This document shows, in pieces, positions 12,505 through 18,655 of a stretch of 64,000 bases of DNA. The notes below the pieces were generated by a model. The model did not search any database. It was not told the origin of the DNA and saw nothing but the letters and a program-made list of their open reading frames with translations. Within the stretch, counting starts at the first letter, position 1. Each line of letters starts with the position of its first letter. The stretch lies in the IMG/VR virus record IMGVR_UViG_3300006045_001036; one strand, written 5' to 3'. The position numbers and the translations under genes were made by a program. Source of the stretch: a virus (Duplodnaviria > Caudoviricetes).

Positions 12505-14097
12505 CTACATCTCTCCGCCTTCACCGCTCTTTACCTCGACTGTCTTCATAGACGCCATCTGAGCAGTGAAGATAGGCAATATGCGTTCGGTTATTTCTTT
12601 AACAGCTTTAACTCTTTCGTCATGCTCTCCGATACCCAGTTTGTCGCACAAATCAAGTAACGCTTTGGCGTTTTCGATTGCCTGTTGTACCTTGTCTATG
12701 AGGAACGTATCAAGCAACGACAGTGGAGCATTCATGCAGAGTTCGTACTTGCCGATATAATCCTTGTACCCATTTCGTTCCAACATCAAATCAATACCAC
12801 GAGTAATTCCTGTCAGGTATGCCACTTGACCTCGTTGTACACGGCGGTTGAATCTGGACGACATTTGTGTCAGCGTTGTTCCCGAAGCACCAAGACCGCC
12901 CTCCCCACTGTAGTTCATCTGTTGTTTGGGGATAGCAAGAGCAGCAAGTTTCTTGTTAAGGTTGTACTCTACGTCAGCTATATCACGAACATTGACATCG
13001 CCTCCGAGCGTTTTGACATCAATCACACCTTTACCATCACGAGTAAGCGAGTATATTGTGTTTTCAAGAGACTGTGGATTTGCAGTACTCTCAGCAGTAC
13101 CGAGCGTTGTAGACAGAGTCATGTCTTGCTCCATCTTGTTTTTCAACGCCATGAGAGCTTTTTGAGCAGCGTCTTTACGCATGGTTTTGACTTCGAGGGA
13201 CACAAGACGTATAACAAGACTTTTCGTCAGTTTGTTAAGGAGCAGCGAGTCTTGCATCAAGTTGTCTATAACAGTCGGTGTGTATGCTGCCTCAAGAGGC
13301 GGCACATCGACCTCGACACCGTATTCGATTTCGTTGCCGTCTTGGTCTTTGAGATACACCGATAATCCCGAGCTAAGTGATTTCAATTGAACATGAAGGT
13401 AACTTGCTGGCGGGTATTTGTTAGCCACACCTTTGTTTGTCGAGTGTAAAAACAGCATAGAACCGAGCTGAGAGCTTTCGACTTGAGAGCGTTTATCAGG
13501 TCCCAGTGAATAGAAACAAGCGGTTTCTCCTGTTTCTTTGAAGGTCAGCTCTACCACACTGTTTTGAAGTTTGATGTCTCGTGTATTCCATGAGAAGTAT
13601 TTTGTTCGCTCTCCACGGTTATCAAGTCGAACCAACCCGCCGACGCTCATGCGGTCACGAAACACCTCCGTCGATGGAAAACAAAATCCTCCGTGAGTAA
13701 ATAAGACTCTCATATGCCCCCAGCCATATTCTTGAAGGCGTAATTCATAATCAACGATATCTTGAATATGCTTCTGAATAATTTCGTTATCAGATGAAGC
13801 CCATACAATCTGACCTTTCTCGTTAGGAGATGTAGACTCGTCCGCATACATATCAAGAGCCGTGGAAACGTCAGGGTCGGACGCCATTTGCTCAATAGCG
13901 AGATAACGAGATGTGAAATTGCTCATCAGAGCTGACAGAGGCTGAAACCCTGCTAAACTGGCGATACTGCCGTTAAGTAAGTCTTCAGGGACACTCGAAC
14001 TCTCAGGCTTCCCGTATTTTTGTTCCCTCATATTACGGCGATTTTCAGCCGACCGTCTGTACCAATCACCTATATTACTTAAGATAGGAATTTTCAT
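12505..14097 (-). CDS. portal protein (T4 gp20-like)
   Basis: MASDPDVSTALDMYADE, DIADVEYNLNKKLAALAIPK, RFNRRVQRGQ. Confidence 0.88.
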   Translation of the reverse strand: MKIPILSNIGDWYRRSAENRRNMREQKYGKPESSSVPEDLLNGSIASLAGFQPLSALMSNFTSRYLAIEQMASDPDVSTALDMYADESTSPNEKGQIVWASSDNEIIQKHIQDIVDYELRLQEYGWGHMRVLFTHGGFCFPSTEVFRDRMSVGGLVRLDNRGERTKYFSWNTRDIKLQNSVVELTFKETGETACFYSLGPDKRSQVESSQLGSMLFLHSTNKGVANKYPPASYLHVQLKSLSSGLSVYLKDQDGNEIEYGVEVDVPPLEAAYTPTVIDNLMQDSLLLNKLTKSLVIRLVSLEVKTMRKDAAQKALMALKNKMEQDMTLSTTLGTAESTANPQSLENTIYSLTRDGKGVIDVKTLGGDVNVRDIADVEYNLNKKLAALAIPKQQMNYSGEGGLGASGTTLTQMSSRFNRRVQRGQVAYLTGITRGIDLMLERNGYKDYIGKYELCMNAPLSLLDTFLIDKVQQAIENAKALLDLCDKLGIGEHDERVKAVKEITERILPIFTAQMASMKTVEVKSGEGGEM

Positions 14098-15686
14098 AAC
14101 AATACTCCGTTATCTGCCAAAAACTTGTCTTCTGATACCATAGGGATTTTGAACGCTTTCGCTTTTCTCATCTCAGAGCCTATTTGCCCCGACATCAAAC
14201 CGCCGACAACAAAAACTTTCGTTTGTTCTGTCACGTTTTCGTGAATTACTCCGCCGTGGTCGGTGATTAAAGCTTTTACCTTTTCAGGTTTGCCGCAACG
14301 GAAGTTTCCTGAAAGATACACCGACACACCAACAAGCGTATGAGGTTTTTCTTCCTTGTTTTTTACTACGTCGGTAACTTCGATAAGCTCTGATAAAGTT
14401 TTCCACTCGGCAATATTCTCGGGTGTAATCGCCCAGTTGACAAAAGCGTTTTGTGCCGCAGACGAAAGACCCGCAGAATTGTGGAAAGCTCTTGGCTTAT
14501 TAATGAGATAATCGTTGAATATTTTTACACTTCCCCTGCTTGCGTCTACAATTGTGTTTACATCACTGTTGGATAATCCGGGGATTTCCAAACTCCATAA
14601 GAGCTTGAGAAGAGACACCTCAAGTTTCTCGGGGAAATTACGAACATATTCTTTTAACCAAGCAGGGGTGAAATTGTTTATACTCGTTTCTTGACCGAGC
14701 TTGATAGCATCGGATAACGATTTCACTTTGTTTTTCGCAGTCATGCCGAGAATAGTTTCCGAAGTAAACGCTATTCCTAACTGGGTAAGAAAAACGTCAA
14801 GACGTTGGTATAGCTGCGATGTGCAGTTGTAATTACCGCATATCGTTGCTCCGTGACCGACTGTCAGTTTGTCACCACACAGAGGGCATTCTCTTTTCAG
14901 AGGCTCGGCGGGAGAGCCAACAGTACGAACAACATTGTCAAGTGTATCTACGATAAACATTTGGTTGACACCGAGGTTATTACGCAGAATATACGAATAG
15001 CTCTTAGTCAGCACAACATCTTTAGTCGAAGTAATCAACTTGCCTATGAGCTGTCCGTTCGCTTTATAATCCAGTTCGATTTTCTGTATACGAAGCAAAC
15101 GGTAAGGGATTCGAGAAGTTAAGAATTGCTCTTTTCCTGTATTGGATTGCATTACGGTTGTAATCCGACCAGGGTATTGAGATAATTCTTTCGATATACC
15201 GAACTCGGCTATAGTAGCGTTGTAATACTCAAACACACCTTGTTGTTCGGTGGTATCGTTACAAGTAACGAATGACAGGGTTTTGAACCCCATTAAGTTA
15301 AGCAGTTCAATGTGGTCGGTTTGTCGGTTTAATATTGTTGGACACATCAAGAACTTGTGCGGGAAGAATACCCGAGACACGTCTTCTTGCAAGCTCATTG
15401 TCTGAGCTTGCTCGTTCATGTCGCCGAATCCGATATGCGACTTCGGTGTGAGTACCCCCAGCACTTTTGAAGTCCCGCCAGTCAACCCGATTGCATGAGG
15501 GATATTTTCAATCGTATCAAGATTGATAATCTTTTCGCCGTATTTTTCGTGGTTCTGTTCTCCTACAGTTACTCCGATAAGCAACCCTTCTTCAGAATAC
15601 TCGGCAACAACGTCTATGCCGAAAGGGTGATAGTAAGCGGTCATTCCTGTACGGAACACCATTTTCTTTACAGGTGTTTTAGTCAT
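14094..15686 (-). CDS. NAD-dependent DNA ligase-like protein, catalytically degenerate (OB, Zn-finger, HhH, BRCT retained)
   Basis: CPLCGDKL..ICGNYNCTSQ Zn finger, LLWSLEIPGL HhH, VYLSGNF..LITDHGG..MVSEDKF BRCT; KxDG replaced by HPFG. Confidence 0.8.
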   Translation of the reverse strand: MTKTPVKKMVFRTGMTAYYHPFGIDVVAEYSEEGLLIGVTVGEQNHEKYGEKIINLDTIENIPHAIGLTGGTSKVLGVLTPKSHIGFGDMNEQAQTMSLQEDVSRVFFPHKFLMCPTILNRQTDHIELLNLMGFKTLSFVTCNDTTEQQGVFEYYNATIAEFGISKELSQYPGRITTVMQSNTGKEQFLTSRIPYRLLRIQKIELDYKANGQLIGKLITSTKDVVLTKSYSYILRNNLGVNQMFIVDTLDNVVRTVGSPAEPLKRECPLCGDKLTVGHGATICGNYNCTSQLYQRLDVFLTQLGIAFTSETILGMTAKNKVKSLSDAIKLGQETSINNFTPAWLKEYVRNFPEKLEVSLLKLLWSLEIPGLSNSDVNTIVDASRGSVKIFNDYLINKPRAFHNSAGLSSAAQNAFVNWAITPENIAEWKTLSELIEVTDVVKNKEEKPHTLVGVSVYLSGNFRCGKPEKVKALITDHGGVIHENVTEQTKVFVVGGLMSGQIGSEMRKAKAFKIPMVSEDKFLADNGVLL

Positions 15687-15745
15687 TGGATAGGTTTCCT
15701 TTCAACTATTAATACTTAGAGAGCTGTGTATAGCTCTGTTTTATA

Positions 15746-15752
15746 AATGCTA
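15746..15752 (-). promoter_or_regulatory. candidate phage late promoter motif TAGCATT
   Basis: Directly after the terminase stop, upstream of the ligase-like, portal and capsid genes. Confidence 0.5.
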
Positions 15753-17885
15753 TTACATAACGAATGTATCATCCGAGCCGACTGTAACACCCATATTACG
15801 CCATACATCATTCCTTGGGTCTCTGTCAAACTGGTCTTCATCCAACGCTCCGATTATGCAATCAAGTCCACTTTCATTGATGAGAAAATCATCATACCCG
15901 AAGAAACTGTCTGCCATTTCTTCCATTGTTTCAGGTGTACCCCAAGCCTGAGGATTGTGTTCAAAGTTGACCGTGTGATAATCCGCCACGTCCATCTGCA
16001 GTGTCTCAATCATTTCATCTGCCCCGATTGATATGCCCGACAGCTCCGATAACACCGCACCCCAAGTCGCTCCGACAACAGCGTCCGCAATATCCTTGGA
16101 TGAACCGTGTCCATGGTCTACTTTTCTTCCCCCGCTTACTGTACGTAACCCTTGAAGTTCACGTTTCAAAAGTATAGATGACAATAATAAAATACGGCGG
16201 TCGGCAAGGAGCCCTTTGAAAATCTTGTGTCCGTCAATTGTTCGGTCTACAGAACGGTAAGTAACCTTAAAACCGTTCTTCATCAATGTTTGCCGCATAT
16301 CTTCCGACAGATGGGCGTTGTCGGCGGAAATCTCTTCTATATGAAATCCTCCATCCCGCAATGCGTAGATGAATTTTCGAATTTTCTCAAAATCTATACG
16401 GTCTTTCTTAGGAGCTGCGATATCGACTGCGAAAACTTCCTCGTACAATGTCTCGTTATACCAGTCTCCTTCTACGTTCTGTACCTCACGCTCTCCCGCA
16501 ATAACTATACCCGCTATCCCAAAACGGTCTCCGCCTTTACCTTTCTTATCACCCTTGATTGCTGCGTCAAGGTGAATGAACATAGGACAGTCACGGATTT
16601 CCCGAGGAATTCCCCGCCAGTTGAAATAATCAATGATTTCACCCTGAGATGTAATTCCCATTTCTACAACATCCTCAGGGAACGGATTTCCTCTCTGGGT
16701 ATGCCAGCAAGTTTCTAACAACTCCATGCTGTAATAAGCGTATTCGCCTTGTACAGCTATTCCGGCAACGTCCATCAGTGTTTGTTCGTAGTTACTCTCA
16801 AACTCTATACGGAGGGCTTCGGGCGGGTAAACAAGTCTGTAACCTTCGACAAATTCAAGTTGGTTACGATATTCGGGGGTATCAAGCTCTTTCGGAACCA
16901 CAAATCCTTTACGAGATAAATCACCTACTGCTACGGTGCAAGTTGCTTTGTTGCCCGAAGTGTCCCATTTATCCCAAGGAATTACTTCCCATTGAGCTTT
17001 ATCAATTATTTTTGCATAGTCTTTCTCGTTCTTTATCGCTTCTTCCATCTTTGCTTCCATAAAGTCCATGTCAGCGTTGTTTTTAGAAGAAATCGCCCAA
17101 ATACAACCTTCGACAATACCGTTGTATCGGATAGTACCACGGATACGAGTGTTAATTGTGTCAAAGGCATCGGACATTTTGGTTTTCTCAGTCCTGACAT
17201 CACGGTTGCCCTCTGTCCCAAAGTTCATCTCGTCGCACAAAGCACAAAAGACTTGCATACCGAGAGCGTGACGTCCACCTACTGCTGCCGAACCAGTTCT
17301 AAGTCTTATAGCACGGTTATTGGGGATATATTTTGGATTTGCTTCGGATTTTGTGAATTTCCCTTTTTTGTTGAACCACGGCGAAGTTATCAGCATATCG
17401 TTGAATTGGCGGAACGCAACACCCTCTGCCATATCTTTTGTCACGTTGAAAAATAAAAATGTAATGACCGAAAAGCTTGAAATTTTGTATCGTCTCTGCG
17501 GTTTATCCATACAGATAAGAATGTGCAGCATATACGCAATACCATAACAGGCGAGTGTGGTTTTACCTATTCTCGTCGCCCCAGTCACATAAATCTCGGA
17601 GTACTTACACCGTGTTGCACCTCTGCCGCTGAATATCTCTTTGAGTTGCTCCCACCATTCTTCGTATATCTCGTTTCCGTAGTCGGAATAGATTCCAAGA
17701 TATCGTTCGTCGGTTAGGAAGGTTTTAAGGTCAGCAGGTTGTTCTTTGAATCCAACACGTTTTAGCTGTTCGAGGGTAAAGCTTTTACCACCGACAGCTA
17801 TTTCATCCAAAATCGCCTGAAGAATCTTTGCTTCTTCAGGCGAAAGGTTTTGTAATAATGGATTTTTATTCGATAACTTCGCCAT
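15753..17885 (-). CDS. terL: terminase large subunit
   Basis: Walker A GATRIGKT, Walker B ALCDE, nuclease HLDAA and VDHGHGSSKDIADAV. Confidence 0.92.
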   Translation of the reverse strand: MAKLSNKNPLLQNLSPEEAKILQAILDEIAVGGKSFTLEQLKRVGFKEQPADLKTFLTDERYLGIYSDYGNEIYEEWWEQLKEIFSGRGATRCKYSEIYVTGATRIGKTTLACYGIAYMLHILICMDKPQRRYKISSFSVITFLFFNVTKDMAEGVAFRQFNDMLITSPWFNKKGKFTKSEANPKYIPNNRAIRLRTGSAAVGGRHALGMQVFCALCDEMNFGTEGNRDVRTEKTKMSDAFDTINTRIRGTIRYNGIVEGCIWAISSKNNADMDFMEAKMEEAIKNEKDYAKIIDKAQWEVIPWDKWDTSGNKATCTVAVGDLSRKGFVVPKELDTPEYRNQLEFVEGYRLVYPPEALRIEFESNYEQTLMDVAGIAVQGEYAYYSMELLETCWHTQRGNPFPEDVVEMGITSQGEIIDYFNWRGIPREIRDCPMFIHLDAAIKGDKKGKGGDRFGIAGIVIAGEREVQNVEGDWYNETLYEEVFAVDIAAPKKDRIDFEKIRKFIYALRDGGFHIEEISADNAHLSEDMRQTLMKNGFKVTYRSVDRTIDGHKIFKGLLADRRILLLSSILLKRELQGLRTVSGGRKVDHGHGSSKDIADAVVGATWGAVLSELSGISIGADEMIETLQMDVADYHTVNFEHNPQAWGTPETMEEMADSFFGYDDFLINESGLDCIIGALDEDQFDRDPRNDVWRNMGVTVGSDDTFVM

Positions 17886-18333
17886 TCTCGTCTACCTCGA
17901 TTCCTTCAACAACCTGCGTTGCTTCACCGAGTATTGCAGAAGCAGCGTCGATTATCTTGCCTCGCTGTCCTTCTTCCATAGTTTCAAACTCATTTGTCGA
18001 ACCCTCGATTTCAATCGGCTCGTTGGGGTTGAATCCCATACATTCGAAAGTAGTTTTCAGCGTTTTATCCGTTACAGTCACCGCCTTGTTTAACTCACCT
18101 TGAGCAGCAAGGCAGACTTGTAAAGCTTGCGGAGCATCCTCGACAGTGTCGAGGTTTGCCATAACGCTCTGTGTACTTTCTACGAGTTTTGTCTCCACCA
18201 GTTCTCGGGCTTGGTCGAGCCGTTCCACACGCTGTATTTCGTTAAGCACACGCTGTTTTTGAAAATTCTGAATGGTTGTCAGAAAATCAGCGTTGCTCAT
18301 GTGGTTTGCATTTTTCACAAATGTATTACTCAT
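17866..18333 (-). CDS. putative terminase small subunit
   Basis: Helical 155 aa ORF overlapping the terL start (positional inference). Confidence 0.5.
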   Translation of the reverse strand: MSNTFVKNANHMSNADFLTTIQNFQKQRVLNEIQRVERLDQARELVETKLVESTQSVMANLDTVEDAPQALQVCLAAQGELNKAVTVTDKTLKTTFECMGFNPNEPIEIEGSTNEFETMEEGQRGKIIDAASAILGEATQVVEGIEVDENGEVIE

Positions 18334-18655
18334 CGTCTTCTCCTTCTGGCTCGGGAGCGGGGTTCATCTCTTCGAGCAGACTCTCCGCCGACACAGCGAT
18401 TGAGAATAAATCGGCGACAAGTTTCGCAGCCTGTTCCTCAAAACTCGAAAACTGCTTACCCGCAATCGCCAAACTTAGCTTTTCACCAAGTTCGTCACAA
18501 CTTCCCGAAATTAACCCTAATGCAGCAGTTGCTGACATTGTGTTATCGCCGTCCGCCGATTGGATAGCGACTTGAGAATCGACAGGAGCGGTAACTTCTG
18601 CCAAAACCTTGGTTTTTCTTCTCGGAGCTTTTGTTCCACTGTTGATAATTTTCAT
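18326..18655 (-). CDS. putative internal head protein
   Basis: Leader MKIINSGTKAP nearly identical to the capsid (MVIINSGT) and 6784 (MKIISSTKAP) leaders; AIQSA. Confidence 0.65.
   Translation of the reverse strand: MKIINSGTKAPRRKTKVLAEVTAPVDSQVAIQSADGDNTMSATAALGLISGSCDELGEKLSLAIAGKQFSSFEEQAAKLVADLFSIAVSAESLLEEMNPAPEPEGEDDE

Follow-up and report, generated by a model that had tools for sequence, protein, structure and literature searches.

Introduction

The closest described system to the protein reported here is the nicotinamide adenine dinucleotide (NAD)-dependent DNA ligase LigA (EC 6.5.1.2; PDB 2owo, 5tt5, 1dgs, 1tae), in which nucleotidyltransferase (NTase), OB-fold, Cys4 zinc-finger, HhH and BRCT domains follow one another. 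In this study, we analyzed a stretch of 64,000 nucleotides (the window) from the IMG/VR virus record IMGVR_UViG_3300006045_001036 (Duplodnaviria; Caudoviricetes), whose contig is 219,530 bp long. On its minus strand, between a gene for a TerL-like large terminase and a gene for a T4-type portal, lies an open reading frame (ORF X; protein P0001) that shares the order and the fold of all five LigA domains. P0001 differs from LigA in lacking domain Ia, the motif I lysine, the TRGDG arginine, the RGE glutamate, the motif IV aspartate and the motif V lysine, in the replacement of basic DNA-contact residues and HhH glycines, and in the place of its gene, which belongs to the head and packaging module instead of the replication genes. 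It thus appears to be an inactive descendant of LigA held under selection at a fixed position in that module.

Two further systems bear on its interpretation. The middle domain of poxvirus A20 (monkeypox virus, MPXV, A22) is an inactive ligase (NTase and OB domains) that acts as a structural bridge in the polymerase holoenzyme (PMC11142717), and Foldseek matched the P0001 model to it (PDB 8k8s, 8hg1, 8q3r) with E ~1e-6. The two are alike in combining a viral ligase fold with a dead active site and, if our reading of P0001 is right, in bridging parts of a DNA-handling machine. A20 comes from the ATP-type ligase lineage, however, has no zinc finger, HhH or BRCT domain and acts in replication rather than in a packaging module, and we take it to be the nearest functional analogue of P0001, not a relative within LigA. 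Subunit B of the PR1/T5-type heterodimeric ligase (PDB 9hu3_B; phrog_3498) has a zinc finger-HhH-BRCT half homologous to that of P0001 (PHROG E 1e-13; Foldseek E 2e-8), but it pairs with a catalytically competent subunit A and ligates DNA, whereas in P0001 a dead NTase-OB half is part of the same chain. A literature search found no paper on the P0001 family or on an inactive NAD-dependent ligase in phage packaging.

The original prediction, made from the letters of the window, had described ORF X as a catalytically dead ligase scaffold without domain Ia. It had proposed a DNA clamp or a nick- or end-binding factor, or else a decoy of the host ligase, rather than a replication enzyme. As set out below, the dead, Ia-less scaffold under selection and in a fixed position was borne out, whereas the specific LigA-style DNA clamp was not.

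Homology of P0001 to LigA

An exhaustive search returned 277 relatives of P0001, and at least 113 clusters (at 50% identity) contain proteins of ~520 amino acids that align with it end to end at ~20-25% identity. The resulting family hidden Markov model (HMM) recovers P0001 over residues 12-531 with E 8e-101. When the family profile was aligned by hhalign with a profile built from 19 true LigAs, the match ran from residue 21 of P0001 to its C-terminus over 476 columns (probability 99.9, E 1.1e-36); global mode gave E 2.5e-57, and across runs 476-493 columns were aligned with probabilities of 99.9-100. An AlphaFold2 model computed on the 113-sequence alignment (pLDDT 89, pTM 0.75) matched full-length LigA structures in Foldseek with E values of 1e-18 to 1e-27 and isolated adenylation domains with E ~1e-5. 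Superposition with VIA-align placed residues 5-195 of the model on the adenylation domain of LigA (residues 87-318) with Z 11.5-12.6 and a root-mean-square deviation of 3.6-4.0 Å over ~180 residues. Profile-profile comparison and predicted fold thus agree that P0001 has the NTase-OB-Cys4 zinc finger-HhH-BRCT order of LigA, as originally read from the sequence. The domain Ia that binds nicotinamide mononucleotide and NAD+ is absent: the model begins at about LigA residue 85-90, and the conserved Ia columns are all unaligned.

Homology of the N-terminal half rests on profile-profile and structural comparison, because plain HMM and phmmer searches match only the C-terminal half, residues 258-526 (Pfam BRCT; phrog_3869, E 1e-23; PDB 1dgs). 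Pfam BRCT (PF00533) scores 29.5 bits on residues 451-522 of P0001, above the gathering cut-off of 21.3, and matches 34 of 46 members scanned. Neither DNA_ligase_aden (PF01653) nor DNA_ligase_OB (PF03120) gave a match above its gathering score in P0001 or in any of those 46 members. The four zinc-finger cysteines, C267, C270, C283 and C288, are invariant in 113/113 members. P0001 is a homologue of LigA and not a member of the LigA enzyme family, since it shares the architecture and the zinc finger but has neither domain Ia nor any of the catalytic motifs and falls below the Pfam adenylation and OB thresholds.

Two proteins in UniProt/BFVD, A0A8S5UC97 ('BRCT domain-containing protein') and A0A8S5UEV8 ('DNA ligase'), belong to the same family (TM 0.58-0.60, E 1e-33) and show the same overall domain arrangement at ~15-17% identity to P0001. 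The name 'DNA ligase' on the latter is a misannotation because the family lacks all catalytic residues.

Loss of the catalytic residues

The string YHPFGIDVVAEYSEEGLLIGVTVG (residues 19-42), which the original prediction had singled out as a degenerate motif I, and the tripeptide LGV (residues 76-78), read as the former RGE, are both present, and hhalign places them on the corresponding LigA motifs. H20-P21-F22-G23 pairs with K-x-D-G, T40-V41-G42 with T-R-G and L76-G77-V78 with R-G-E. At the motif I lysine position the 113 members have V (70), I (18), L (8), H (5, with H20 in P0001) or A (5) and K in none, and lysine stays below 4% at any position within four residues of the motif. The motif I aspartate position is hydrophobic across the family, and the arginine position of TRGDG is variable (V41 in P0001). 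Valine occupies the RGE glutamate position in 87 of the 113 (V78 in P0001), while Ser, Ala, Met or Thr takes that of the motif IV aspartate (S169 in P0001). The AxKF segment of motif V has no counterpart and remains unaligned, and the NPRN arginine, invariant in LigA, is Glu or Asp. What has been retained is structural: the glycine of KxDG, the motif I tyrosine (Y30), P63, G77, G211, the four cysteines and the BRCT glycine.

Covalent nucleotidyltransferases cannot act without the motif I lysine, which serves as their nucleophile. Since this lysine is missing along with the other catalytic residues, members of the P0001 family are predicted to be unable to adenylate or seal DNA, in line with the dead scaffold originally proposed.

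Gene order and selection

ORF X is intact, the plus strand opposite it is full of stop codons, and the portal start codon overlaps its stop codon (ATGA); the uninterrupted frame of 530 codons and the overlap had been noted at the outset. Read 5' to 3' on the minus strand, the genes follow in the order 155-amino-acid ORF, TerL-like terminase, 66-nt spacer, ORF X, T4-type portal, small conserved ORF, protease/scaffold-like gene and gp23-like capsid gene.

The order TerL, ORF X, portal recurred in 32/32 loci found through P0001. In a sample drawn independently of ORF X, namely the IMG/VR loci collected through the portal alone that have enough upstream sequence, the portal is immediately preceded by ORF X in 64/64. 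The conserved synteny that the original prediction had put forward as a check is therefore present. SP-15 and LIS04, the cultured phages whose portals are nearest (~24% identity), lack ORF X, and their TerL directly adjoins the portal. A tblastn search with two members found no family member among 50,697 GenBank phages, and a scan of IMG/VR with the single sequence of P0001 gave no match; the pattern search of IMG/VR used a 10-sequence sub-alignment, the full 113-sequence alignment being too diverse.

Against a homologue with 85% identity, the ratio of nonsynonymous to synonymous substitution rates (dN/dS) comes to 0.066 for the whole frame and to 0.05-0.09 for the single domains, the dead NTase domain included. 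In the same comparison it is 0.04 for the portal and 0.03 for TerL; dS exceeds 1, so that all these ratios are approximate. They indicate strong purifying selection, and the homologues show no random decay. The frame is intact in 31 of the 32 loci; in L023, a 6.8-kb IMG/VR contig, it is split into two overlapping frames (L023:1414-3010), owing to a genuine frameshift or else to faulty assembly.

These data bear on two other accounts of the gene. Some viruses have a LigA whose Ia domain is separate (PMC9503650), and P0001 might by analogy be an active ligase with Ia encoded elsewhere, or with a non-canonical nucleophile; the split frame in L023 might in turn be taken as the mark of a decaying pseudogene. 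Activity is hard to reconcile with the absence of the lysine nucleophile and of all other catalytic residues in 113/113 members, where mostly hydrophobic residues stand instead, and the dN/dS of ~0.07 together with the near-universal intact frames excludes decay. We find either form of this explanation scarcely credible.

Alternatively, P0001 could be a decoy or counter-defense factor that mimics host LigA or shields TerL or the portal, titrating a host partner or an immune sensor, and that sits in a late operon for timing only. Such a role would suit a protein that has preserved its shape while losing its chemistry, that belongs to a family with an acidic surface, and whose best conserved domain, BRCT, is typically a protein-interaction module. 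Counter-defense genes, however, are usually variable accessory genes, whereas ORF X is universal, single-copy and fixed between two core morphogenesis genes in all portal-collected loci, with a dN/dS as low as theirs; no match to a defense-related family was seen, though no search was aimed at one. We therefore regard the decoy as improbable.

DNA-contact residues and charge

Ten conserved basic columns of LigA, distributed over the NTase, OB, HhH and BRCT domains, could be mapped onto the family, and 10/10 hold acidic or neutral residues, in P0001 as well as across the family. They include the NPRN arginine mentioned above and an invariant BRCT lysine. The hairpin glycines of the HhH domain are mostly lost, and HhH2 is deleted in 108/113 members; an HhH2-like segment is kept in the clade of the window (window 14643-14678, minus strand; P0001 residues ~337-348). 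By an alignment-free count, the lysine plus arginine content is below that of LigA in every domain. The family has an average net charge of -12.6 and LigA one of -3.8, while P0001 itself is neutral. Conservation of the OB domain exceeds that of all other domains in the LigA sample and falls below theirs in the P0001 family, where BRCT, first among the domains, and the zinc finger have been kept best. An expected inversion of constraint relative to LigA held in part only: the OB domain drops from most to least conserved, and BRCT is well conserved in both families.

With both the catalytic residues and most of the DNA-contact residues lost from a preserved copy of LigA, the job of P0001 would be a non-enzymatic one. 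The replaced contacts and HhH glycines, the acidic family average and the preferential conservation of BRCT and zinc finger go beyond the original prediction, and they count against its more specific proposal. In that proposal, P0001 is an exapted clamp that encircles DNA at nicks or ends as LigA does, serving terminase, the protection of ends after ejection, or the loading of late transcription. The protein does keep the whole ring-forming architecture of LigA and the Cys4 finger. Its BRCT domain is closest to the 5'-phosphate-binding BRCT of RFC1 (VIA-align Z 12, root-mean-square deviation 1.9 Å) with the T/S-G dipeptide in place, the window's clade is neutral and has the HhH2-like segment, and in the main clade a few basic residues are clustered where BRCT begins. 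Set against this are the loss of all ten basic positions, including the NPRN arginine (now Glu or Asp) and the BRCT lysine, the missing HhH glycines and HhH2, the weak constraint on the OB domain and the negative mean charge. A LigA-like grip on nicked DNA is not supported by these comparisons, and we consider a DNA clamp in any of these forms doubtful. A protein-binding scaffold is favored over a DNA-binding one because basic contacts have been replaced, lysine and arginine are scarce, the average charge of the family is negative, and conservation is highest in BRCT and the zinc finger and lowest in OB.

Origin of the family and resident ligases

All five complete IMG/VR relatives that carry ORF X (160-214 kb) encode an intact LigA of 641-705 amino acids elsewhere in the genome. 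All of these LigAs exceed the Pfam cut-off for PF01653, with their KLDG and RGE motifs intact, and an ATP-dependent ligase was found in 0/5. The presence of a separate, intact ligase, together with the dead active site of the P0001 family, agrees with the original view that ORF X is not a replication enzyme.

In a maximum-likelihood tree, a branch with 100% support divides the pseudo-ligases from every active LigA, even from those encoded by the same phages. Because of this separation, the tree is consistent with a single, old origin of ORF X and not with a recent copy of the resident ligase. The clade of the window is rare, with four known sequences, and is a deep sister of the main clade. 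It looks closer to the LigA ancestor, since it has kept the HhH2-like segment and a net neutral charge.

Proposed role

On balance, we lean towards P0001 being a protein without catalytic activity that serves the terminase-portal machinery as an accessory or adaptor and acts in portal-vertex assembly or DNA packaging through protein contacts, and would call this moderately probable. According to this model, a full-length, Ia-less paralogue of LigA would have lost all its catalytic residues long ago and would since have been kept, among the core genes for heads and packaging, by a large lineage of uncultured phages whose portals are of the T4 type. The protein would be made together with the portal through translational coupling, and BRCT and the zinc finger would be its main functional surfaces, binding proteins. 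The adaptor role is suggested by the invariant slot between TerL and portal, the coupling to the portal, and a constraint close to that on portal and TerL; both the role in packaging or assembly and the protein-binding mode are what we infer from these features.

Several points weigh against this proposal. Gene position is only circumstantial evidence of a role, and a search for longer forms of P0001 fused to TerL or portal found none, which is itself weak evidence. The mapping of DNA contacts uses a profile alignment of 18% identity that could be off locally, although the alignment-free counts of lysine, arginine and charge agree with it. P0001 is net neutral rather than acidic and keeps the HhH2-like segment, and members of the main clade, though not P0001 itself, retain a short basic cluster where BRCT begins. 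Some DNA binding is possible because of the neutral charge and HhH2-like segment of P0001, the local uncertainty of the mapping, and that cluster in the main clade. Finally, no true LigA was found within the 64-kb window of this phage, and a profile search with the LigAs of the relatives placed no protein of its contig among the best 120 matches.

A more far-reaching form of the adaptor proposal, which we think unlikely, holds that the packaging machine cannot work without P0001 as its third protein: a LigA-shaped C-clamp between the portal and the TerL ring, as a protein counterpart of the phi29 pRNA adaptor, or else an initiator of portal assembly.

Neighboring genes and sequence features

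The coordinates of ORF X, its domains and the adjacent features are given in Table 1. The terminase gene upstream of ORF X had no match in PDB by sequence, profile search included; its homologues match four PHROG TerL families. In relatives, TerL homologues are enlarged or split in several loci (L005:5632-7995, L016:2752-5964, L025:1964-5950, L027/L028:3395-5976). An intein-splicing domain was matched in the TerL of L005 (787 amino acids) only, the scan having left aside the 1070- and 1328-amino-acid and split frames, and the TerL of the window had no such match.

Table 1. Features of the packaging module in the window (all on the minus strand; residue numbers refer to P0001)
Feature	Coordinates	Strand	Basis or remarks
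ORF X, whole; putative LigA-derived pseudoenzyme	14094..15686	-	ATG at 15686, stop codon 14094-14096
Degenerate nucleotidyltransferase (adenylation) domain, residues 6-195	15102..15671	-	VIA and column statistics; HPFG, TVG, LGV
OB-fold domain, residues 196-262	14901..15101	-	Five beta-strands in model; hhalign to LigA OB
Cys4 zinc finger, residues 263-295	14802..14900	-	C267, C270, C283, C288; PDB alignment to 1dgs
Helical HhH-derived domain, residues 296-440	14367..14801	-	Model, hhalign; hairpin glycines mostly lost
BRCT domain, residues 448-530	14097..14345	-	Pfam BRCT; T/S-G retained, canonical Lys lost
TerL-like large terminase, 710 amino acids, upstream of ORF X	15753..17885	-	Walker A GATRIGKT; phrog_2 E 5e-5
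Spacer between TerL and ORF X, 66 nt	15687..15752	-	TAGCATT, TATAAAA, inverted repeat, RBS-like GAAAGGAAA
T4-type portal, 530 amino acids, downstream of ORF X	12505..14097	-	Pfam Portal_T4 E 1.6e-30
Small ORF directly after portal, 114 amino acids	12145-12489	-	Conserved in 31 related loci
Candidate small terminase, 155-amino-acid ORF	17866..18333	-	Position only, directly upstream of TerL

The spacer holds several short motifs. TAGCATT, which the original prediction had placed before the ORF, lies at 15746-15752, immediately 3' of the TerL stop codon, and as a word it is not enriched within the window (10 observed, 7.5 expected). It is followed by TATAAAA, and beyond that by a 6-bp inverted repeat, AGAGCT/AGCTCT, at 15720-15737; the sequence GAAAGGAAA upstream of the ATG of ORF X resembles a ribosome-binding site (RBS). 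TATAAAA resembles the T4 late promoter TATAAATA, and judging from these motifs ORF X and the portal gene may begin a late transcript of their own.

The slot directly upstream of TerL, which is the canonical one for a small terminase (TerS), is occupied by an ORF of 155-200 amino acids in 24/24 loci with enough flanking sequence (L002, L005, L008-L032). The product of the window's ORF is modeled by AlphaFold2 (pLDDT 66) as a long antiparallel helical hairpin with a C-terminal helix and an acidic tail. It had no Pfam, PHROG or significant PDB match beyond a generic helical hairpin, and by position only it is likely the small terminase. The evidence from this slot also bears on a further explanation of ORF X itself, namely that P0001 replaces or complements the small terminase by recognizing DNA and activating TerL. 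ORF X does adjoin TerL, and no recognizable TerS family was found in the block. With a separate helical-hairpin protein encoded in the canonical slot of every locus that could be inspected, and with P0001 encoded downstream of TerL, devoid of conserved DNA-binding residues and without a TerS match in PHROG and Pfam searches, we judge this role quite improbable and continue to prefer the adaptor.

Two small genes complete the neighborhood. The 114-amino-acid ORF after the portal has no family match and occupies the slot that small prohead-core genes have in T4. An acidic small ORF that begins MKIINSGT (window 18326-18655, minus strand) has a homologue only in the closest relative, L002, and lies outside the conserved block around TerL.

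Implications

The public labels 'DNA ligase' and 'BRCT domain-containing protein' mislead the annotation of metabolic and replication modules in gut phages, and neither recognizes that these proteins are inactive. The family offers a clean case of an entire five-domain enzyme that, on present evidence, has become a scaffold without catalysis, for which the inactive ligase of poxvirus A20 offers a parallel. Phage packaging motors are thought to require only a portal and TerL, in most cases with TerS as well. The presence of a fourth, strictly conserved gene that separates TerL from portal in all sampled members of a large lineage of uncultured phages of 120-250 kb points to an unrecognized component of head assembly or packaging. 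If P0001 were indeed a C-clamp between portal and TerL or an initiator of portal assembly, it would represent a new architecture of the packaging motor, shared by an entire lineage of large phages from gut and rumen.

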